Below the pieces are notes generated by a model. The model had not been told where the DNA came from, did no database searches, and saw nothing but the letters and a program-made list of their open reading frames with translations. A DNA stretch of 64,000 nt from Candidatus Bathyarchaeota archaeon (GTDB lineage: Archaea > Thermoproteota > Bathyarchaeia > 40CM-2-53-6 > RBG-13-38-9): assembly GCA_026015185.1 (NCBI GenBank), contig JAOZGX010000103.1, positions 2,127 to 66,126 on the forward strand, in the 5' to 3' direction. Of this stretch, positions 17,125 to 60,338 are shown one piece after another (within the stretch, counting starts at the first letter, position 1; every line of letters starts with the position of its first letter). A program made the position numbers and the translations under genes.

Positions 17125-18123
17125 TTATAGTTCTATCTCAATCAACAATTTTTCCAAGAGCTCTTTATACCGATTTCTAATAGTTACCTCCGTAACGTTG
17201 GCCACTTCTGCTATCTCTCTCTGCGGCTTTCTTTCATTAGTGAGCACTGTTGCAAGATAAGTAGCTGCAGCTACTATGCCTAGAGGTCCCCGACCGCTGG
17301 TTAGCTTCATTTTCTTGGCAGCCCCAAGTATCTTTATAGCTATAATCTCAGCCGTACCTGAAATTGCTAATTTATTTGAAAGTCTGGAAGCATGACTGCT
17401 ACTTTTCAATAGTGGTACAAAAGAATCCAATTCTTTGATTATGAACCTATAACTTCTCGCTAAATCTTTCCTATTTAAGCTGGAAGCAGTGGCTATCTCC
17501 TCCAACGTTCTTGGGATCCCGCACTTCCTGCATGACAAGTAAATAGTAGCTGCTATTATACTATGGATGGACCTGCCGCGGCTTATTTTCTTCTTAACGG
17601 CTTCCCGGTATATCACGGAAGCCGTTTCCACTATACTCCTTGGGAGATTTAAGGCAGATGAAAGTTTACTAAGCTGCGATAGTGCTACAGCCAAATTTCT
17701 CTCAGTAGCATCGAGAACACGAATTTGTCTCTGCCGCTTTCTGAGAGCATAAAGCTCCAATCTCTGCTTAGAAGATATTTTTCCACCTATTGATCTTTTA
17801 TCTTTCCAATCTATGGTGGTCGACAAACCTTTATCATGAATGGTGTAAGTTATTGGCGCGCCCACGCGTGTTCTTTTAGCTCTTTGTTCGTCGTCAAAAG
17901 CTCTCCACTCTGGTTTAGTGTCTATAATCTTTTCGTCTATTACATAGCCACATTCGATGCAAACAATTTCCGCGATGTCATAATCTCTCATCAAATTCGA
18001 GTTGCCACATTCGGGGCATTTCCTTGGTTTACTCTTTACCGAGATGTGACTTTTAGCACTCTGATCGGTGTGCGCATATATTGTAAGATGTGGTGCTTTA
18101 TCGAACCTTCCCAGAGTGATCAC
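17125..18123 (-). CDS. tfb: Transcription initiation factor IIB (TFB)
   Basis: N-terminal Zn ribbon CPECGNS...CIECGYV, B-finger, two cyclin-fold repeats and the C-terminal HTH (NVTEVTIRNRYKEL). Confidence 0.9.
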   Translation of the reverse strand: MITLGRFDKAPHLTIYAHTDQSAKSHISVKSKPRKCPECGNSNLMRDYDIAEIVCIECGYVIDEKIIDTKPEWRAFDDEQRAKRTRVGAPITYTIHDKGLSTTIDWKDKRSIGGKISSKQRLELYALRKRQRQIRVLDATERNLAVALSQLSKLSSALNLPRSIVETASVIYREAVKKKISRGRSIHSIIAATIYLSCRKCGIPRTLEEIATASSLNRKDLARSYRFIIKELDSFVPLLKSSSHASRLSNKLAISGTAEIIAIKILGAAKKMKLTSGRGPLGIVAAATYLATVLTNERKPQREIAEVANVTEVTIRNRYKELLEKLLIEIEL

Positions 18124-18294: not shown

Positions 18295-18675
18295 GTGAAA
18301 AGTATGCCTTATTGTAGACAATGCGGAGAGAAAAATCCTCAGGATGCTGCTTTCTGTATAAGTTGCGGAGCAAAGGCCAGAGCTACTTCCACCAAATCTA
18401 CATCCTCAACTGATTCTGCTCCTAAAACACAATTGGATGCACCTAGAAAAAAGAAGCATGCTTCATTAGCCGCCATTCTAAGTTTTCTGATAGGTGGATT
18501 AGGGCATTTCTATCTAGGAGAATGGAAGAGGGGCGCATTGTGGTTTATTGCATTGATAATCATAGCGCTAGTACTTTATTATATATTGAATTCTACTGGC
18601 ACTTTTATTGCATTAATATTTAACGTTATCTGTGGTTTAGACGCTAGAAAAATCGCTGTAAAGAAATATTCTTAA
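18295..18675 (+). CDS. Zinc-ribbon + TM2-domain membrane protein
   Basis: N-terminal CRQCGEKN...CISCGAK zinc ribbon. C-terminal AAILSFLIGGLGHFYLGEWKRG is the TM2-domain signature. Confidence 0.6.
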   Translation: MKSMPYCRQCGEKNPQDAAFCISCGAKARATSTKSTSSTDSAPKTQLDAPRKKKHASLAAILSFLIGGLGHFYLGEWKRGALWFIALIIIALVLYYILNSTGTFIALIFNVICGLDARKIAVKKYS

Positions 18676-22381: not shown

Positions 22382-24412
22382 CTATACCCCATTCGTAGTA
22401 TTCGTAATAGATTGCATTACCTGGAAAACGCCTTGATCAGATGCTAAGAATTTTCCTCCCTCAGATATCATTTTATCAGAAACATATCCTCTCATCGAAT
22501 AAGAACCGCTGGAAGCTTGATCCGACAATTTAAAGCTGATACGAATAATAATCGGGCCTTCATCATCCTTAACAGTATTTTTAATTACATTCTGGATCAT
22601 TAGTATCTGCAGTGGAACCCCATTATCATCCTCTATTTCGATCCAAATAATTCCGTTTAATTCGTCACCTCCGTTATTTATATCCAGAACCACATTTACA
22701 GTTTCTCCTGGACTGAAAATATTCTTTTTCGAATTATTCACATCTGTAGAATAGATAGTGGCTATGATAATAGCTGGATCTGAGCTTTCGCCTACGACAA
22801 ATGACGTTAGGGCATAGGCGTCTCGAACATCTAAATTACTTGCAGTAATAAAAAGTTGATACGTTCCTGATTTGGAATTATCGCCTAGAGTAAAATTATT
22901 ATAAAAACTTCCATGTATATCGGTTGTTGTAAGGCCTATGTGAGCGACATCACCTGAATGATCTGCTACTTGGATAGAAATTGAGACATTATCTGTTGAA
23001 ATGCCCCAACCATCAACCTTTCCATCAATATGAACAGTTTCTCCTGGATTGTATGCTAGCTTATCTGTGGAGATTTCCACTTGCAATGAAGCCCCAGATA
23101 TAATAAGAACTAGACTTGTAGCACATATAGGTCCACCTTCAGCATTACACTTACCCGTTATTGTTAGATAATATATACCTGGAGTGACAAGGAAACCTGT
23201 ACTTACAAGAAGTGTAAGATCTTGTTCATTATCTTGGCCAATAATTACCGGATTTGTACTGAACTCCGATGTGCAATTTTTTGGTAATCCCCCCACTGAG
23301 AAATTTATTGGATCTTCGCTAAGGCCAGAGGTTGAGATAAATATATTATACTTTACAGAATCGCCAGGGATCACCAATTGTGAATTTGGATTTACCTTAA
23401 AATTGAATTCAACTTCTGTGCTGCTTTTGATCCTTAACGTTACATCAAATTTTCTTACCTCATTCAAATGCTTAGCTGAGATTGTAAGGTTATAAATGCC
23501 ATCAGGTGTGCTTGAATCAGAAATAATTTCCATTTTCGAGTTGAATGGGGGGATTCCTGAAGGATTTTCGAAAATTACTTCAGCATCAATAGGTAATCCA
23601 GAGATATCAATTGGAACCTTGTTATAATATTCACCGATAGAAAGGACTTCCACATCGTAAACAGCTGTTTCGCCTGCATCAATTATCTGGAAGTCTGGAT
23701 TAGCTGATAGTGAAAATTCCTTAGGGAGTTTGGCCTCAGTTCCAACATATACCATATCATAATATGCTGTTTGAATAATCCCGGTGCCATAGACATCCGC
23801 TAAGACAAGACCTACACCAGTTATATCAATATTTTGAGGTGGACCCCAAACTGCTGTATAATCTTCATATAAATTCCTTTCATGAGGCATCCATACTTTT
23901 TCAAGCTCATGAAACACGAAGGAATAGGATAATGAACTATTTATACGCGACCCATAATATTCAGAGATGTAATATCCAATTTTTCCATTACTGAATTTGT
24001 AAAAGATACCAATATAGCTGAAATGTTTTAAGGGAACATTCCAAACGAAAGCAGAAACTGTATCCTCCATAAGAGGAATAACAAAGCCTTTTTCAGTGAA
24101 ATCATAATTATACTTTATAACAGCCGATTGTCCTGGTTTTGTGGTTTGAGCTGAGAAAGATAATGATTTCTTTCCTTCGTAAGAAATATCTGCCTGTGTT
24201 TTGAATTCTATAGTTTCCCATCTCCCCTCATGTTCTAGTTTCCATTCGTCAATTCTACGCTCAAAATTCTCATAAAATAAGCTGGCTTCTCTGTAATCCT
24301 TTCTATCATTGTCTTCTTTGCCCAAAACATGGGGCGTATTTGAAATAGTAACTAAATTCATGCAGACAAGCAACAGAACCAATAATGAGGTAGTAGATAT
24401 CCTGGCCTTCAT
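22382..24412 (-). CDS. Large secreted cell-surface protein with multiple Ig/CARDB-like beta domains
   Basis: The likely true start is MKARISTTSLLVLLLVC (signal peptide) at 24412. The tracked ORF extends upstream through a TTG and the GCGCGCGC palindrome. TAG stop. Confidence 0.65.
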   Translation of the reverse strand: MKARISTTSLLVLLLVCMNLVTISNTPHVLGKEDNDRKDYREASLFYENFERRIDEWKLEHEGRWETIEFKTQADISYEGKKSLSFSAQTTKPGQSAVIKYNYDFTEKGFVIPLMEDTVSAFVWNVPLKHFSYIGIFYKFSNGKIGYYISEYYGSRINSSLSYSFVFHELEKVWMPHERNLYEDYTAVWGPPQNIDITGVGLVLADVYGTGIIQTAYYDMVYVGTEAKLPKEFSLSANPDFQIIDAGETAVYDVEVLSIGEYYNKVPIDISGLPIDAEVIFENPSGIPPFNSKMEIISDSSTPDGIYNLTISAKHLNEVRKFDVTLRIKSSTEVEFNFKVNPNSQLVIPGDSVKYNIFISTSGLSEDPINFSVGGLPKNCTSEFSTNPVIIGQDNEQDLTLLVSTGFLVTPGIYYLTITGKCNAEGGPICATSLVLIISGASLQVEISTDKLAYNPGETVHIDGKVDGWGISTDNVSISIQVADHSGDVAHIGLTTTDIHGSFYNNFTLGDNSKSGTYQLFITASNLDVRDAYALTSFVVGESSDPAIIIATIYSTDVNNSKKNIFSPGETVNVVLDINNGGDELNGIIWIEIEDDNGVPLQILMIQNVIKNTVKDDEGPIIIRISFKLSDQASSGSYSMRGYVSDKMISEGGKFLASDQGVFQVMQSITNTTNGV

Positions 24413-24474
24413 CTTTCTTTCCGAATTTAATATATCTTCCATATTTTTAAATGTTTTTTTGTAGCACATATTTG

Positions 24475-24486
24475 CGCGCGCGCTAC
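24475..24486. promoter_or_regulatory. GC palindrome variant GCGCGCGCGCTA, 63 nt upstream of the probable start of the surface-protein gene
   Basis: Read directly. A TTTAAAAATAT AT-box lies between the motif and the ATG on the coding strand. Confidence 0.35.
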
Positions 24487-24769
24487 TATAGCAAATAATT
24501 AACAATTTAATAAAGAGCCTATAAAAAATCGAGAAAAAAAATATAAATCCCTAAATTTTCTCGTCTATTCTATCTGACATTAATATTAAAGGGGATTCAA
24601 AAGTCTTTGTTAGGAGCATTCTTTTCTGACTTTTGTTTTACGATTGGATGCCAAAAAATTGAAACATGGAGATTAAGAAAGACCTTATCAAAAATGTTTA
24701 TTGGTATTTGGATATTGTTGTTATTTTTTTATTGTGCATATTATTTTTAGCGCATGCTCACATGAATCA

Positions 24770-25314: not shown

Positions 25315-26883
25315 ATGCAATCTAAATCTAGTAGAAAAATAGCTGTGATTCTCGCATCAATTTTGATAATCTCATCATTACATGTCCCTTATGCGTTTTC
25401 GCAAACAAATTTGACTCCTAATAGAACGACATCCCCTACCCGTGTTATGGAAGATGAAACTATAAGGATCACTATTGAACTGGAGGGTGCAGGGGATATA
25501 TCTGCATCACCTGTTGATACAATGATGGTTATAGATAAATCAGCCAGCATGGCTGGCGATAAGATCGCTGATGCCAAGACTGCTGCAAAAGCCCTTCTTA
25601 CACTTACCAATGAATTAGATAGGGCTGGTCTAATATCCTTTGGCAGTAGTATAAAAATCAAATATGAATTGGCAATTATGAACTCGACTAATAAAGAGGA
25701 TTTAGAAGACGAGATCGATGACATCACAACTAGTGGGCAGACTAATATATACGATGCCATAATTGCGACCAATGACCTCCTAAATGATTCTCCTAGGCAA
25801 AATGTTCCAAAGGTACAGATTCTTCTTACAGATGGTGCCCACAATTATCCAACAACGCGTCCAGATAGTGATTTCGAAGATCTAGCTGAAGATACAAGGG
25901 ATCAAGGCATCACAATATTCACAATAGGTCTAGGGGTCGACACCAACGAGGAAAGGCTTGGGATGATAGCAAATATCACAGGAGGAAGGTTCTTCTATGC
26001 TCCTACATCTGACGATCTGCCTGAGATATTCAGAGACATCGCAAGGATGTTGGCTTTGGTCGGTACAGACATCGTGGTAACAGAGAGGATCCCTGACTAC
26101 TTGACCTATAATGAAGACGCATCGAAAGACCCTGATGAAAGAAATGATTTTGTAGCCGTACCATTGGGTGTTTCAGATTCGCGCCCGCTACTTGAGCTCA
26201 AATGGAATGTTGGCAGAATGTGGTTGCGGGACGAGTGGAACGTCACTTATACTGTCAAGGCGGAAGACGCTGTGGATACCAGCGGCATTGTGAGCTTCTC
26301 GCAGATAACATACAAAACTCGCGAGGGGCAGTCAGTCACAATAGACCTCTATCAGGGATTAGTTTTTCACAACATATCATTAACAGACCTGATTATAGAC
26401 CCGACTAATGTGATCCAAGGCGATGTGATAAATATCACTGCTACCGTTGATAGCGAGGGCATGATTCAAGATACTTTTCCCGTTGATATAAGGTACGACA
26501 GTACGTTGTTGAACAGGCAGACCGTAACCTTGAGTCCAGGCGAGTCAAAAAACGTAACCTACTCATGGAATACTACTGGTGTGGAGGTTAGAGAGTATAA
26601 CATTACGGTTACCGCGGATCCAGATGAAAATATATGGGAGCAGGACAGGTCAGATAACACAGATAAAGATGAAGTGCGAATATCTACACAAAGCAACCTG
26701 ATAATCTTTTTGTTAATAGGACTCTTTTTCTTGATAATAGCTGTAGCTGGTGTAATAGGCGGTTACCTGTATGAAACAAAGGGAAGAAGATCCCAACCGG
26801 ACTATAGATGGTACTTTGCTGGATGTAGCTTGCGTGCAATATCAAAACTTGCGAAAAGTTCAAATCTAATCAAAGTTCGATAA
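25315..26883 (+). CDS. Secreted vWA-domain + CARDB-domain protein with a C-terminal TM anchor
   Basis: Signal peptide; MIDAS DKSASMAGDKIADAKTAAK (DxSxS), T and D sites; C-terminal CARDB-like beta domain (ITATVDSEGMIQDTFPVDIRYD...). Paralog of 58791..60338. Confidence 0.8.
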   Translation: MQSKSSRKIAVILASILIISSLHVPYAFSQTNLTPNRTTSPTRVMEDETIRITIELEGAGDISASPVDTMMVIDKSASMAGDKIADAKTAAKALLTLTNELDRAGLISFGSSIKIKYELAIMNSTNKEDLEDEIDDITTSGQTNIYDAIIATNDLLNDSPRQNVPKVQILLTDGAHNYPTTRPDSDFEDLAEDTRDQGITIFTIGLGVDTNEERLGMIANITGGRFFYAPTSDDLPEIFRDIARMLALVGTDIVVTERIPDYLTYNEDASKDPDERNDFVAVPLGVSDSRPLLELKWNVGRMWLRDEWNVTYTVKAEDAVDTSGIVSFSQITYKTREGQSVTIDLYQGLVFHNISLTDLIIDPTNVIQGDVINITATVDSEGMIQDTFPVDIRYDSTLLNRQTVTLSPGESKNVTYSWNTTGVEVREYNITVTADPDENIWEQDRSDNTDKDEVRISTQSNLIIFLLIGLFFLIIAVAGVIGGYLYETKGRRSQPDYRWYFAGCSLRAISKLAKSSNLIKVR

Positions 26884-26906
26884 TGTTAGCAAATGGTGAT
26901 TGAATT

Positions 26907-27284
26907 ATGAGCTATGCATATATTCCCAAACCTCCTAAAAGAGTCCTTTGCCAACCGCCACCTGAAACATATACATGTACACCCTCTCCAAGAGCTGTAA
27001 TGGTTCAAGATCCGCCCGTTCAATACGAATACTTCCCTCCACCAGTGGAGTATGTTGAACCGTCTCCTCCTGATGTTTATTACCAGCCTCCTCCTGAGGA
27101 ATTTGCGGTTGAAAAACCGCCTATAACATATGTCTACCAGCCACCCCCGGAGGAGTATTGCGTACCGCAACCTGCGGAGCACTTTATTGTTCAGCAGCCA
27201 GCATACAGAGTCTGTTATTGCTGTGGAGGAAATCTAGGAGAAACAGAGAGATTTTGCCCTAGCTGTGGAGCAGGACAACAATAA
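26907..27284 (+). CDS. Proline-rich repeat protein (YxQPPPEE repeats) with a C-terminal zinc ribbon
   Basis: Repeats QPPPETY, YYQPPPEEF and YVYQPPPEEY, then CYCCGGNLGETERFCPSCG. Lies directly downstream of the vWA gene. Confidence 0.5.
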   Translation: MSYAYIPKPPKRVLCQPPPETYTCTPSPRAVMVQDPPVQYEYFPPPVEYVEPSPPDVYYQPPPEEFAVEKPPITYVYQPPPEEYCVPQPAEHFIVQQPAYRVCYCCGGNLGETERFCPSCGAGQQ

Positions 27285-57266: not shown

Positions 57267-57644
57267 ATGAAAAATAGTATTGTCGCTGGTGCTATAGCTG
57301 GGCTTGTAGGTGCAGTAGTAGCTGTAATATTTGGCATTTTACTTTGTTTCGTAGGATGGTGTCCAATGCCTACTTCGTATTCTAGCATAGTAATGATTAT
57401 TATTTCTTTAATTTTCGGTGCAATATTTGGCAGAATATATGAGATGATTCAGCGCTCTATTCCGGGTAAAGGTTCTATGAAAGGCCTTAACTTCGGTTTA
57501 TTGATATGGCTAATTTGTAATATCGCAGCTGGTGCTTATGTTGGTTTAGTCGTTAATGAAGTATCTACAGCGATTGGCTTAATCTCTTTTGGTTTCTTCA
57601 CATGGATCGTATACGGATACGTGCTCGGAATACTATACAAGTAG
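57267..57644 (+). CDS. Small 4-TM membrane protein, member 3 of the paralog family
   Basis: AGAIAGLVGA ... IPGKGSMKGLNFGLLIWL ... GILYK. TAG stop. Confidence 0.6.
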   Translation: MKNSIVAGAIAGLVGAVVAVIFGILLCFVGWCPMPTSYSSIVMIIISLIFGAIFGRIYEMIQRSIPGKGSMKGLNFGLLIWLICNIAAGAYVGLVVNEVSTAIGLISFGFFTWIVYGYVLGILYK

Positions 57645-57923: not shown

Positions 57924-58331
57924 ATGAAAAGCGGTGTTGCTGCAGGTGCTATTGCGGGTATAATCGCTGGCATAGTGGCAGTTCTTTACTTAGAATTACT
58001 TGTTAATATGGGCCCATTAGCAATGTATTATGTTGCAGATCCAGTTATTTTGATGAAGTGGGCTGCAACTCATATCGGACTTAACGTGTTCTGGGGAGCC
58101 GTAATGGGTGCAGTATTCGCAAAGGTTTATAATGTGGTTCCAAATAAAGGTGCAATGAAAGGGCTTATCTTCAGCCTGATAATGTGGATATTTGTAAACG
58201 TCTATATGGTTACATTTAATACTCTGAGCTTAGGAATGCCTGTTACTATGTCAGGAATTCTTTTAATCTCAGTTGGATTACTTGTGAGAATTGTATATGG
58301 CCCAATACTTGGAGTTCTCTATAAGAAATAG
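57924..58331 (+). CDS. Small 4-TM membrane protein, member 4 of the paralog family
   Basis: AGAIAGIIAG ... VPNKGAMKGLIFSLIMW ... GVLYKK. TAG stop. Confidence 0.6.
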   Translation: MKSGVAAGAIAGIIAGIVAVLYLELLVNMGPLAMYYVADPVILMKWAATHIGLNVFWGAVMGAVFAKVYNVVPNKGAMKGLIFSLIMWIFVNVYMVTFNTLSLGMPVTMSGILLISVGLLVRIVYGPILGVLYKK

Positions 58332-58430: not shown

Positions 58431-58748
58431 TTATTTCTTTTTTTCGACTTTAATTTTACATTTCGTAGCAATTGCAGCGATCGATCCAAGTGCAGCTAGC
58501 CATGGGGCCAGAATAATACCTACAACACCTGCCGTTACTGGAATTTCAAGAAGGGTTTTTCCCTCTTCATTTTCAACAATTATCTTGCTCACTTTTCCTT
58601 CTTCAATGATCTCTTTTGTTTTCTGTACAAGCTCCTCTGATTTAACCTCGAATTCTTCAATAAACGATTTGCCTAAGTTTGCTCCGCAGTTTGAGCAATA
58701 ATTTGCATCTTCTGGTAATTTTTTATTACATTTTCTACAAGAAACCAT
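58431..58748 (-). CDS. Zinc-ribbon protein with a C-terminal hydrophobic helix
   Basis: CRKCNKK...CSNCGANL, then an acidic linker and a TM segment. In the same frame as the upstream vWA gene, separated by two TAGs. Confidence 0.5.
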   Translation of the reverse strand: MVSCRKCNKKLPEDANYCSNCGANLGKSFIEEFEVKSEELVQKTKEIIEEGKVSKIIVENEEGKTLLEIPVTAGVVGIILAPWLAALGSIAAIATKCKIKVEKKK

Positions 58749-58790
58749 AGGACATCTACCCTTATTCTATAGTAAGAAATGCTTTTTTAT

Positions 58791-60338
58791 CTATCTGAAA
58801 TAGCGTCTGCATCTAGCGCAGTACCATCTTCCGGTTCGGCTGTCGCATATCAAGGACGATCTACATCTCGGACAAGAAGCGTGTGCACTACTAATGACTC
58901 TTCCCCTTCCACGTCTAGAATAGTAGATTCCTCCAACTGCAGATGTAGCTAACATCAAGAAAAATATAACGATAACGAAGAAGATGATCGGACTTAATTC
59001 TCCGGCGCTAACATCTACTTTTGTAGTCGCTATATTATCAGTCCTGTTTTGCTCCCATATATTCTCATTTGGATCTGCAATGACTTTAACATCATATCTC
59101 CCTCCTTGAACATCGGAAGTATTCCATTTATAGCTAACATTCTTAGGCTTATTCGGTTCAAGAATCACGGTTTGACTGTTCAACAATGTATTGTTCGACC
59201 TCATCTCTACCTCGCAAGCATCTTGTAACATACCTTTACTCTCAACAGTAGCTAGAATATTCACTAATTCTCCACGGCTTACCCTATCTGGCTCTGCAAC
59301 TAATCGAGTTACTGCAATATCGTGAAAAACCAATCCAGGTAAGAGATTTATTGTAACTGGAACATCTTCAATCGTAGTATATTTAATTTGAGTCTGGCTT
59401 ATGGCACTACTGGAATCAACAGCTTCGTCAGCTCGGGCTGTATAGGAAACCTCCCAGACTTCATTTATCCAAAGAGTGCCTACATCCCATTTGAGAGTTG
59501 TATTTGAACTCTCATTTATTTCATCTGGAGTTATCGAAGAGTCCTTATTATAGGATAAATAATAGGGAACGGTCTCAGATACCGTAATTCCAATACCGGC
59601 TATCGCTAATCTGCCTGCAATCTCAATAAATATGTCTTGAAGTTCTTCTGATGTCGGTGCAAAGTAATATTGACCGTCAGTAATATCAGCGATCATTCTA
59701 AGCCTATCAGCATCAACATCGCTCCCTAAACCTATTGTATATATAACAATCCCACTATCTCTAGTTTCTTCTGCAAGGGACTCAAACGCCCCATCAGGAA
59801 CCGCTGGATAATTATGACGACCGTCTGTGAGGAATATTTCTACTAACGGGATATCTTCTCTTGCCGAATCAATGAGAAGTTCATTTGTGGTTTTTATGGC
59901 ATCATAGATGTTAGTAGTTCCTGCTGCACTCACTTTGAAAGTGTCTATCTCACTCTTTAAAAAATCCTTATTAGCGGAATTCATGAATTCTAAATCAGAT
60001 TCAATCTTTACATCTCTTGAAAATGTAATCAAACCAACTCTATCGATATCATCGGTAAAATCTAGAAATGCTTTAGCTGCAGTTTTAGCATCAGCTATTT
60101 TACTACCGCTCATGCTACCAGATCTGTCAAGAACCAAAACGACATCTACTTCAGAAAAACCAATATCTCCGACTCCAGAAAGCTCGATAGTAATCCTTAC
60201 CGTTTCCCCCTCTAAAACACGTTGGGGAGAGATTATCTTATTTATTTCTAAGCGTTGAATCCCTTGTGAATTCGCATTAGGGATGTATATGGGTAGGATT
60301 ACCAACAGTATGAAAATTAAAGGAATTATTTTGCGCAA
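58791..60338 (-). CDS. Secreted vWA-domain + CARDB-domain protein with a C-terminal TM and cytoplasmic zinc-ribbon tail
   Basis: MIDAS DRSGSMSGSKIADAKTAAK; CARDB-like ILATVESKGMLQDACEVEMR...; TM; then CPRCRSS...CARCRRYFR. Paralog of 25315..26883. TAG stop. Confidence 0.8.
   Translation of the reverse strand: MRKIIPLIFILLVILPIYIPNANSQGIQRLEINKIISPQRVLEGETVRITIELSGVGDIGFSEVDVVLVLDRSGSMSGSKIADAKTAAKAFLDFTDDIDRVGLITFSRDVKIESDLEFMNSANKDFLKSEIDTFKVSAAGTTNIYDAIKTTNELLIDSAREDIPLVEIFLTDGRHNYPAVPDGAFESLAEETRDSGIVIYTIGLGSDVDADRLRMIADITDGQYYFAPTSEELQDIFIEIAGRLAIAGIGITVSETVPYYLSYNKDSSITPDEINESSNTTLKWDVGTLWINEVWEVSYTARADEAVDSSSAISQTQIKYTTIEDVPVTINLLPGLVFHDIAVTRLVAEPDRVSRGELVNILATVESKGMLQDACEVEMRSNNTLLNSQTVILEPNKPKNVSYKWNTSDVQGGRYDVKVIADPNENIWEQNRTDNIATTKVDVSAGELSPIIFFVIVIFFLMLATSAVGGIYYSRRGRGRVISSAHASCPRCRSSLICDSRTGRWYCARCRRYFR

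Follow-up and report, generated by a model that had tools for sequence, protein, structure and literature searches.

Paralogous MIDAS surface proteins with unrelated zinc-ribbon neighbours in a Bathyarchaeia genome

Analysing 64,000 nucleotides of contig JAOZGX010000103.1 from a Candidatus Bathyarchaeota archaeon (hereafter the window), we conclude that this DNA holds two paralogues, vWA1 and vWA2, of a Bathyarchaeia-restricted family, probably of type-I MIDAS surface proteins. Duplication was probably confined to the vWA gene, with later loss of the ribbon on the vWA1 branch; the small ribbon genes rib1 and rib2 are unrelated genes, probably placed downstream independently and recently, with no conserved functional module. 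An earlier note, made from the letters of the sequence, had described two paralogous loci forming a duplicated module. The paralogy holds for the vWA genes, whose products share 46% identity across their full length (E = 5e-157), but not for the small genes, which are not homologous, and the duplicated module falls with them. The four open reading frames (ORFs) that the note had listed are all present. The features are as follows.

25315..26883, + strand: vWA1, ORF of 522 aa, predicted type-I membrane surface protein
25510..26046, + strand: vWA domain of vWA1 (aa 66-244; Pfam stretch 70-240)
26386..26661, + strand: CARDB of vWA1 (aa 358-449; PF07705)
26698..26769, + strand: predicted TM helix of vWA1 (aa 462-485, LIIFLLIGLFFLIIAVAGVIGGYL, then basic KGRR)
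26803..26826, + strand: ribbon remnant of vWA1 (YRWYFAGC; family alignment columns 501-545)
26907..27284, + strand: rib1, ORF of a 125-aa YQPP-repeat protein
27213..27266, + strand: C-terminal ribbon of rib1 (CxxC-x10-CxxC)
58431..58748, - strand: rib2, ORF of 105 aa
58440..58670, - strand: DUF4342 of rib2 (PF14242; Pfam 95.4 bits, cut-off 25)
58674..58739, - strand: N-terminal Zn_Ribbon_1 of rib2 (Pfam 31.3 bits, cut-off 25)
58749..58790, - strand: vWA2-rib2 spacer, 42 nt, 14 codons in frame with one TAG, non-coding
58791..60338, - strand: vWA2, ORF of a 515-aa paralogue of vWA1 with an intact, predicted cytoplasmic Cys4 ribbon tail
58809..58874, - strand: tail zinc ribbon of vWA2 (CPRC-x14-WYCARC; regex match)
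58920..58991, - strand: predicted TM helix of vWA2 (AF2: residues 450-473)
59025..59297, - strand: CARDB of vWA2
59628..60146, - strand: vWA domain of vWA2

Both large proteins contain a vWA domain well above the Pfam cut-off of 23.8 bits (PF00092; 88.8 bits in vWA1 and 102.6 bits in vWA2), followed by a CARDB domain (44.4 and 38.0 bits, respectively; cut-off 22.7). The MIDAS motif is complete (D74-x-S76-x-S78, T143 and D173 in vWA1 numbering), and the family alignment shows these positions to be invariant or conserved at 90% or more. Read by eye, the N-termini resemble Sec signal peptides (...YAFSQ and ...NANSQ). An AF2 model of vWA2 (mean pLDDT 81.7) gives the order beta 29-56, vWA 65-243, beta 246-338, CARDB 341-444, TM 450-473 and ribbon strands 497-514, with the CARDB region all-beta, and the TM segment of vWA1 aligns with this predicted helix. 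Together, Pfam, the family alignment, the model and the N-termini bear out the signal peptide, full MIDAS, CARDB and TM anchor that had been claimed for both proteins. The predicted order in vWA1 is thus a signal peptide, a split beta-sandwich with the inserted vWA/MIDAS domain, CARDB, TM helix and a degenerate cytoplasmic ribbon tail. Because of the signal-peptide-like N-terminus, the CARDB domain, and the C-terminal TM segment with its basic residues and Cys4 tail, we place the vWA ectodomain outside the cell and the ribbon inside, a topology predicted from sequence features. Comparison with orthologues indicates purifying selection on vWA1, as on vWA2, rib1 and rib2. NCBIfam yields vWA-domain matches below threshold and no family name for the proteins. 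A role in a defence system was considered and dropped, as PADLOC HMMs gave 0 matches at E <= 0.01 for any of the four proteins.

Structure comparison with Foldseek returned as best PDB matches the Catenulispora protein 4fx5, ArnB (8s05, 5a8j) and the pilus-tip adhesins SpaC, PitA and Mfa5. Like the window proteins, these adhesins carry a MIDAS-bearing vWA domain within Ig-like or beta-sandwich domains on a stalk (E 1e-17 to 7e-16), and metal-dependent ligand binding is likely, by analogy, to be common to both groups. They differ in how they are held at the surface: SpaC, PitA and Mfa5 are polymerised or anchored by sortases or type V pilus assembly, whereas the window proteins would be held by the C-terminal TM helix and zinc-ribbon tail. 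No sorting signal or pilin motif is visible in the window vWA proteins, whose C-terminus consists of the TM segment, a basic stretch and the Cys4 ribbon. The combination of an ecto-vWA domain, a TM helix and a cytoplasmic ribbon recurs in P0015, which has a signal/anchor segment, vWA, a TM helix and a C-terminal ribbon; this ribbon, however, is of the PF13240 type instead of the WYC type described below, and P0015 has no CARDB. Membrane vWA proteins of the BatA/BatB type also match the window proteins in vWA-domain fold and HMM, but the scores for NCBIfam BatA and related families lie far below their cut-offs and there is no bat operon here. This domain reading supports the note's suggestion of surface adhesion or metal-dependent ligand capture, and the locus reads as an ordinary adhesin/receptor family at the cell surface.

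Records of the full-length family all come from Bathyarchaeota/Bathyarchaeia: 5.8e9 proteins include 12 members, full-length or fragmentary, and a single genome carries as many as three paralogues; the literature searched contained no description of a vWA-CARDB-ribbon family in Bathyarchaeota. Most members keep a tail of the consensus CxxC-x11-13-RWYCxxCxRY. In the alignment, the CPRC...CARC ribbon that had been noted as intact in vWA2, and as a remnant (RWYFAGC) in vWA1, can both be seen: a deletion of about 14 residues removed the first CxxC knuckle of vWA1, and its second knuckle lacks one Cys. This degenerate state is common to all orthologues of the vWA1 clade, and the ribbon was lost or half-lost independently in that clade, in L013/P0012 and in L024/L026/L014. 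The tail ribbon of vWA2 matches no Pfam family at its gathering score. It belongs to a portable archaeal type, CxxC-x11-13-(R/K)WYCxxCxxY (WYC type), for which a profile search recovered 278 cluster representatives at E <= 1e-3. Ten proteins from the 150 listed (278 representatives in all) were scanned with Pfam, and these bear unrelated domains or tandem ribbon arrays. The WYC ribbon also follows the TM anchors of LTD/Ig, PQQ-propeller, beta-helix and Ig ectodomains, and tandem arrays occur in soluble proteins, among them a Ser/Thr kinase and a vWA protein without a predicted TM segment. What the family does conserve is the vWA protein's own tail ribbon, a portable archaeal module of predicted cytoplasmic location.

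The two small genes are of quite different kinds. Rib2, in which the note had recognised a zinc ribbon (Zn_Ribbon_1, above the Pfam cut-off), belongs to a large family, conserved in Bathyarchaeia, that combines Zn_Ribbon_1 with DUF4342. It has 343 homologues, of which the 120 listed share 55-95% identity at nearly constant length, and these are free-standing 105-aa proteins with the same start Met; the sole distinction of rib2 among them is its position beside vWA2 in this lineage. Its AF2 model (pLDDT 72) combines the ribbon with a beta-alpha-beta-beta-alpha-beta fold, for which the structure searches returned no solved relative and nothing significant, and DUF4342 is not mentioned in the literature searched. 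In rib1, a lineage-specific protein, YQPP repeats precede a terminal ribbon; the Pro-rich repeats and closing CxxC...CxxC reported earlier are both evident, as three (V/L)(Y/C)QPPPE(E/T)(F/Y) repeats and a C-terminal CYCC-x10-CPSC. It scores above the cut-off of no Pfam family (the best being DZR, 14.3 bits against 27.3) and belongs to neither PF13240 nor DZR by that measure. The CxxC-x10-CxxC is conserved in four orthologues, among which substitutions fall mostly on the third codon position of the + frame (for example 7/6/28 by position), with 23 synonymous and 11 non-synonymous codon changes. An antisense ORF of 98 aa, called on the minus strand by JGI, was considered in place of rib1 and rejected; its changes are mostly non-synonymous. 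The third-position bias and synonymous excess, together with the non-synonymous pattern of the antisense ORF, show the + strand gene to be real. In L006, L007 and L008 the public annotation calls the antisense ORF where rib1 stands.

A small CxxC...CxxC gene lies downstream of each vWA gene on its strand, after gaps of 23 and 42 nt. A Shine-Dalgarno-like GGTGAT lies upstream of the rib1 start, 23 nt past the vWA1 stop. Given this co-orientation, the short gaps and the motif, expression of vWA and small genes as operons is plausible, and with it some functional coupling. The small genes themselves, however, are unrelated: the best BLASTP match between rib1 and rib2 reaches 19.6 bits and covers only the CxxC motif (11-20 residues), and their architectures are opposite, with the ribbon C-terminal after Pro-rich repeats in rib1 and N-terminal before DUF4342 in rib2. 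A larger segmental duplication was also rejected, since the flanking membrane proteins are unrelated and the neighbouring Pfam content differs. In a neighbour-joining tree the vWA1 and vWA2 clades are sisters, and L023 branches at the base of the latter. Rib1 was found only beside vWA1 orthologues of 85-93% identity and rib2 only beside vWA2 orthologues of 92-93% identity; rib2 is already absent beside L023, which is 63% identical to vWA2. No ribbon gene adjoins the vWA homologues of L002, L003, L004, L009, L020, L005, L024, L025, L026, L013 and L014, several of which have a convergent gene 36-190 nt downstream. The pairing is thus absent from about ten deeper vWA lineages, and also from four sampled small-gene homologues: three other genome contexts of rib2 homologues, in none of which is there a vWA neighbour, and the distant rib1 homologue P0142, likewise without one. 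In GCA_975964235.1 the rib2 family and a vWA homologue are both present, on different contigs. The note had taken the pairing in both paralogues as conservation of a functional module, and had named vWA homologues lacking a ribbon gene as the observation that would speak against it. Such homologues are what the neighbourhoods contain, the partners are non-homologous and the pairing is limited to near-identical relatives. As the small genes are mutually unrelated and not kept together with vWA in other genomes, the comparison indicates that there is no duplicated two-gene module and that the small genes are unrelated neighbours.

Two other readings would change what these proteins are, and both are very improbable. 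Since vWA2 and rib2 share a frame, 14 codons apart, and TAG serves as both the stop and an internal codon, they might be one gene in which the TAGs undergo read-through or recoding (to pyrrolysine, for instance), giving a vWA-CARDB-TM protein with a double-ribbon and DUF4342 cytoplasmic tail. The common frame had been noticed before and stands; the 16 codons with two TAGs described with it do not, the spacer having 14 codons and one TAG, and the other TAG being the vWA2 stop. Yet the vWA2 orthologue in L022 terminates in TAA at the same position, and the 42-nt spacer has gathered several non-conservative changes between flanking codons that are almost unchanged. Every family member with an intact ribbon stops within a few residues of it whatever its stop codon, or bears an unrelated Pro-rich extension; 12 of 44 long ORFs in the window end in TAG, a common stop here, and the rib2 homologues, as described above, stand free. 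With a TAA in the close relative and a spacer that evolves like non-coding DNA, the shared frame is coincidental, and we rejected a read-through or Pyl fusion in view of the L022 TAA, the divergent spacer and the consistent C-terminal end in the family; of all the readings considered, we regard it as the most remote. Scarcely more credible is that the vWA proteins are cytoplasmic regulators like ArnB, with the adjacent zinc-ribbon proteins acting as ArnA, ribbon on beta-sandwich. ArnB and ArnE of the Sulfolobus archaellum regulatory network and 4fx5 do share with the window proteins a MIDAS-bearing vWA domain inserted in a beta-sandwich, a split seen both in the secondary-structure order and in the matches to 8s05 and 5a8j. 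They are the top PDB matches (E 8e-20 to 9e-13 over ~320 columns; ArnB chains reach E 3e-18 over 319 aligned columns), and the zinc ribbon of the separately encoded neighbour ArnA binds the vWA/beta-sandwich protein ArnB (PMC12852372). ArnB, however, is cytoplasmic, with a phosphorylatable C-terminal helical bundle (ArnB_C) and a partner with ZnF and FHA domains, whereas the window proteins have a signal peptide-like segment, CARDB, a TM anchor with basic residues and their own Cys4 tail, which put the vWA domain outside. Neither vWA1 nor vWA2 matches ArnB_C, in whose place stand CARDB, the TM helix and the ribbon, and Pfam finds no FHA domain in rib1 or rib2.

A convergent functional pairing, in which ribbon proteins of different origins (rib1, rib2 and a membrane protein of L010/L023) were recruited to the tail or TM region of vWA proteins, for example as adaptors, is unlikely but deserves more weight. 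Beyond the tight same-strand gaps and the motif before rib1, the ~70 window ORFs include only three small ribbon genes that stand alone, and two of these directly follow the vWA paralogues. Further ribbon ORFs adjoin homologues elsewhere: a third, unrelated gene for a ZnR/B-box-like membrane protein in L010 and L023, and a 56-aa ribbon ORF in L012. The rib1 ribbon could replace that of vWA1 in trans, as vWA1 is without a cis ribbon and its partner has distant homologues (P0142-P0144) that carry the repeats and no ribbon. ArnA-ArnB is a precedent for a zinc finger of one protein that binds another protein with vWA and beta-sandwich (PMC12852372). The excess of ribbon neighbours is nominally significant against a small-ORF background of 4.6% (P = 0.008-0.04, from crude ORF sets and a pattern chosen post hoc), but not against all ORFs, 10.7% of which have CxxC..CxxC (P = 0.18-0.36, with the same reservations), and the background estimate includes the very genes under test. 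The partners, moreover, are non-homologous, about ten vWA lineages lack a ribbon neighbour, rib2 homologues are widespread and elsewhere show no linkage to vWA, and an ArnA-like contact with the beta-sandwich would be topologically impossible if the ectodomain lies outside the cell. Slightly less likely again, in our judgement, is a broader version in which the WYC ribbon serves archaeal surface proteins generally as a docking module in the cytoplasm and links TM-anchored ectodomains (vWA-CARDB, LTD/Ig, PQQ propeller, beta-helix) to soluble tandem-ribbon proteins, including Ser/Thr kinases. The small ribbon genes beside the vWA paralogues would then be lineage-specific adaptors of this network, with rib1 possibly replacing the lost vWA1 ribbon in trans. 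If true, this would amount to an undescribed transmembrane adhesion-to-signalling network.

Under the preferred reading, an ordinary duplication of the vWA gene alone, each vWA protein would be exported via its Sec signal peptide. Outside the cell, the MIDAS-complete vWA domain, inserted in a split beta-sandwich, would be carried on a CARDB stalk followed by one TM helix; inside, there would be a short tail, ancestrally with a Cys4 zinc ribbon (CxxC-x12-RWYCxxCRRY). From vWA/MIDAS biology we would expect an acidic side chain of an extracellular ligand to complete the coordination of a MIDAS-bound divalent cation. Candidate ligands are proteins or peptides, other cells and surfaces, and the result may be adhesion or ligand capture, while the ribbon may serve as a generic docking module tying the anchor to cytoplasmic partners. 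The vWA1 branch would have lost its ribbon after the duplication, and rib1 and rib2 would have arrived downstream independently and recently, possibly to be co-transcribed with the vWA genes.

A duplicated vWA and ribbon module, if true, would have pointed to a novel surface system of two components. What the evidence shows instead is the ordinary duplication of one gene beside unrelated neighbours, although the vWA proteins and small ribbon proteins may be loosely linked in function. The analysis defines a small family of adhesin-like MIDAS receptors specific to one lineage and corrects the public annotation, in which, besides the antisense calls at rib1, three JGI calls (P0002-P0004) miss the signal peptide. 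The more useful by-product is the tail ribbon itself, a widespread portable archaeal type common to kinases, vWA proteins and a variety of ectodomains. Among sediment archaea the Bathyarchaeia are abundant but uncultured, and surface proteins of theirs may mediate attachment to particles, partner cells or detrital polymers.

The two loci go back to an ordinary duplication of the gene for an uncharacterised vWA-CARDB surface protein, and their two small neighbours are unrelated. An earlier note, which had proposed a duplicated two-gene module of a vWA-CARDB protein and a zinc-ribbon partner, was largely right in its description of the sequence, but not in its module interpretation. The window belongs to a Candidatus Bathyarchaeota MAG, and the 522-aa vWA1 is identical to an NCBI protein entered under that name. 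The four open reading frames, whose coordinates we verified, lie in a window of 37% G+C in which TAG, TAA and TGA are all used as stops:

25315..26883 (+), vWA1, vWA-CARDB membrane protein, 522 aa
26907..27284 (+), rib1, Pro-rich protein with three QPPPE(E/T) repeats, then a C-terminal CYCC-x10-CPSC
58791..60338 (-), vWA2, paralogous vWA-CARDB membrane protein, 515 aa
58431..58748 (-), rib2, N-terminal Zn_Ribbon_1 followed by DUF4342 (95 bits, Pfam)

The two vWA proteins are paralogous, as proposed, with 46% identity end to end (E = 5e-157). In both, the VWA and CARDB domains pass their Pfam thresholds, and the complete MIDAS (DxSxS, T, D) is conserved in the family alignment. Signal peptides, judged by eye from the sequence and not with a predictor, show a Sec-like n/h/c layout at the N-termini of vWA1 (ending AFSQ) and vWA2 (ending ANSQ). 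An AlphaFold model of vWA2 (11-sequence family alignment as input; mean pLDDT 81.7) gives the following order of elements, membrane anchor included:

aa 29-56, two beta strands
aa 65-243, vWA alpha/beta domain
aa 246-338, further beta strands
aa 341-444, CARDB domain, all-beta
aa 450-473, TM helix
aa 497-514, three short strands at the Cys4 motif

In both proteins basic residues follow the TM anchor, then the tail. This layout, with a signal peptide, a CARDB domain, an anchor with its basic residues and a Cys4 tail, predicts that the vWA domain lies outside the cell. By established MIDAS biology, the coordination of a bound divalent cation would be completed by an acidic side chain of the ligand, a mechanism that suggests proteins working in adhesion or as receptors for ligand capture, dependent on the metal. 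Top-ranking PDB folds for the vWA2 model are 4fx5, ArnB/ArnE (8s05, 5a8j) and the pilus-tip adhesins SpaC/PitA/Mfa5, followed by integrin and other vWA domains. In ArnB, a vWA domain topologically splits an eight-stranded beta-sandwich (PMC12852372). The order of elements is the same in the vWA2 model, but the signal peptide, CARDB domain, TM anchor with basic residues and Cys4 tail belong to the window proteins and not to ArnB.

The full-length family is small, with records only from Bathyarchaeota/Bathyarchaeia and at most three paralogues per MAG; vWA1 and vWA2 are under purifying selection. Public calls of three vWA1 orthologues (P0002, P0003 and P0004, at L006 1735.., L007 1965.. and L008 1554..; L handles denote loci with homologues in other genomes or metagenomes) comprise 478-480 aa and begin at an internal Met, without the signal peptide; the true ORFs are 522-524 aa long, and their extended N-terminus matches vWA1. 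Another local surface protein, secreted and of 707 aa, is encoded upstream of vWA1 in divergent orientation (22382..24505 (-)); its N-terminus resembles a signal anchor, and it carries repeated beta domains together with an alpha-2-macroglobulin-like MG2 domain.

The small genes do not share this paralogy. The similarity between rib1 and rib2 is confined to a generic CxxC..CxxC (19.6 bits), their architectures are opposite (Pro-rich repeats before a C-terminal ribbon; N-terminal ribbon before DUF4342), and the genes flanking the two loci are unrelated. A neighbour-joining tree of the family pairs the vWA1 and vWA2 clades as sisters and puts L023 at the base of the vWA2 clade. We surveyed the neighbourhoods of 22 further family loci (GTDB genomes, JGI metagenomes) and of eight loci obtained by exact look-up. 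Among these, rib1 homologues accompany only vWA1 orthologues with 85-93% identity (L006-L008, L016-L018), and rib2 homologues accompany only vWA2 orthologues with 92-93% identity (L021, L022); the latter two share their entire local synteny and so represent the same species-level lineage. At L023, 63% identical to vWA2, rib2 is absent. In about ten further lineages, no small ribbon gene adjoins vWA (L002/L009/L004, L003, L020, L005, L024, L025, L026/L027, L013, L014); in L003 and L005 a convergent gene starts 76 and 36 nt downstream, too close for a ribbon gene to fit in between. Conversely, three sampled contexts of rib2 homologues contain unrelated genes and no vWA neighbour; the one locus examined among the distant rib1 homologues likewise has no vWA gene. 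GCA_975964235.1 carries both families on separate contigs, vWA on contig 18 (L003) and DUF4342 on contig 6 (L031). The pairing, whose conservation across both paralogues the earlier note took to suggest a functional module, is thus limited to near relatives. Homologues of the vWA gene with no adjacent ribbon gene, the very observation that the note had named as refuting its reading, do occur, which argues against a module.

The main rival to ordinary duplication is a loose, convergent association of small ribbon genes with the vWA family. A Zn_Ribbon_1/B-box-like multi-TM gene precedes vWA in L023, one follows it in L010, and a 56-aa ribbon ORF adjoins it in L012. With ribbon genes in four or five of 28 neighbour slots, P = 0.008-0.04 against small ORFs (≤250 aa, 4.6% with CxxC..CxxC), but P = 0.18-0.36 against all ORFs (10.7%), both backgrounds coming from a crude ORF set of the same loci. 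As the outcome depends on the background, we retain this rival beside the preferred reading of a duplication with unrelated neighbours. Co-transcription of the vWA genes with their small neighbours is plausible, since the genes are closely spaced on the same strand and a GGTGAT motif resembling a Shine-Dalgarno sequence precedes rib1.

The L023 and L010 genes are of a third kind (L023 4131..4862 (+); L010 3170..3403 (+)), combining Zn_Ribbon_1 with a B-box-like Cys motif (PPGMCYYHP) and several TM helices, and adjoin vWA homologues of two different clades. An in-frame TGA breaks the L023 copy; a second paralogue lies ~2.5 kb away (L023 2037..2399 (-)). Besides rib1 and rib2, the only small stand-alone ribbon gene in the window (18295..18675 (+)) combines an N-terminal Zn_Ribbon_1 with a TM2/DUF6677-like membrane segment and adjoins a TFB-like gene (17125..18123).

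The reported common frame of vWA2 and rib2 holds, as do its two TAGs (the vWA2 stop and one internal), but the gap is 42 nt, or 14 codons, and not 16. The vWA2 orthologue in L022 stops at TAA, and the spacer carries several non-conservative differences among three loci otherwise 92-96% identical. Family members with an intact ribbon end within a few residues of it or run into an unrelated Pro-rich extension, and rib2 homologues are free-standing proteins with the same Met start. Judged from these comparisons, the common frame is a one-in-three coincidence.

Both strands are open at 26907..27284. Substitutions among four rib1 orthologues concentrate at third positions of the + frame (window versus L006: 7/6/28 by codon position; 23 synonymous versus 11 non-synonymous codons), and by this pattern rib1 is therefore a genuine + strand gene under purifying selection. 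The antisense ORF, with differences at first positions and 2 synonymous versus 25 non-synonymous, was ruled out as a real gene. JGI minus-strand calls of 89-92 aa (L006 3346..3624, L007 3576..3854, L008 3174..3443) are antisense to the true gene there, a 125-aa rib1 orthologue on the + strand. A Pfam search with rib1 gave no family above threshold, and its distant homologues are three YQPP-repeat proteins without a ribbon.

Also under purifying selection, rib2 belongs to a large, highly conserved family in Bathyarchaeia (343 matches; the 120 listed ~105 aa, 55-95% identical). Its AlphaFold model (pLDDT 72) has a ribbon followed by a beta-alpha-beta-beta-alpha-beta unit; sequence and fold searches gave no significant solved relative, and a literature search found no paper mentioning DUF4342. 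Convergent with rib2 are tandem paralogous genes for small multi-TM proteins (57267..57644 (+), 57924..58331 (+)), with weak DUF6789 matches below gathering score; the same pair occurs in L021.

The vWA2 tail ends, as the earlier note described, in an intact Cys4 ribbon, here called WYC-type (CxxC-x11-13-RWYCxxCxxY):

58809..58874 (-), WYC-type tail ribbon CPRC-x14-WYCARC, C-terminus of vWA2

Only the degenerate RWYFAGC is left in vWA1, because ~14 residues including the first CxxC were deleted. The ribbon is labile within the family: the vWA1 clade and L013/P0012 have lost it, and L024, L026 and L014 have lost half. In one clade (L005/L011, L012, L025) the tail runs on past the ribbon for 30-60 residues rich in Pro, Arg and Lys (such as ...YYDTRVQRKTPPPRPKGK...), which shows the predicted cytoplasmic end to be evolutionarily plastic.

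No Pfam family matches the vWA2 tail ribbon above gathering score, and the ribbon proteins scanned mostly match various ribbon families below threshold. Searching 1.84e9 cluster representatives with a 39-position profile of the tail found 278 proteins at E ≤ 1e-3. About half of the best 150 (P0145-P0294) are soluble, with 2-10 tandem copies of CxxC-x11-13-(R/K/Q)(W/F/Y)YCxxCxxY; among them are the Ser/Thr kinase P0225, with four copies, and P0231, a vWA protein with three copies and no predicted TM segments. At least 16 of the same 150 end in one or two copies placed directly after a TM segment, behind unrelated ectodomains: LTD with Big_3_5 (P0262), a PQQ propeller (P0248), a beta-helix (P0202) and an Ig-like domain (P0276). 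The most interesting by-product of the analysis, the WYC-type ribbon is a widespread ribbon type that recurs in archaea as a cytoplasmic tail or array module, and it may be a portable cytoplasmic docking module for putative partners.
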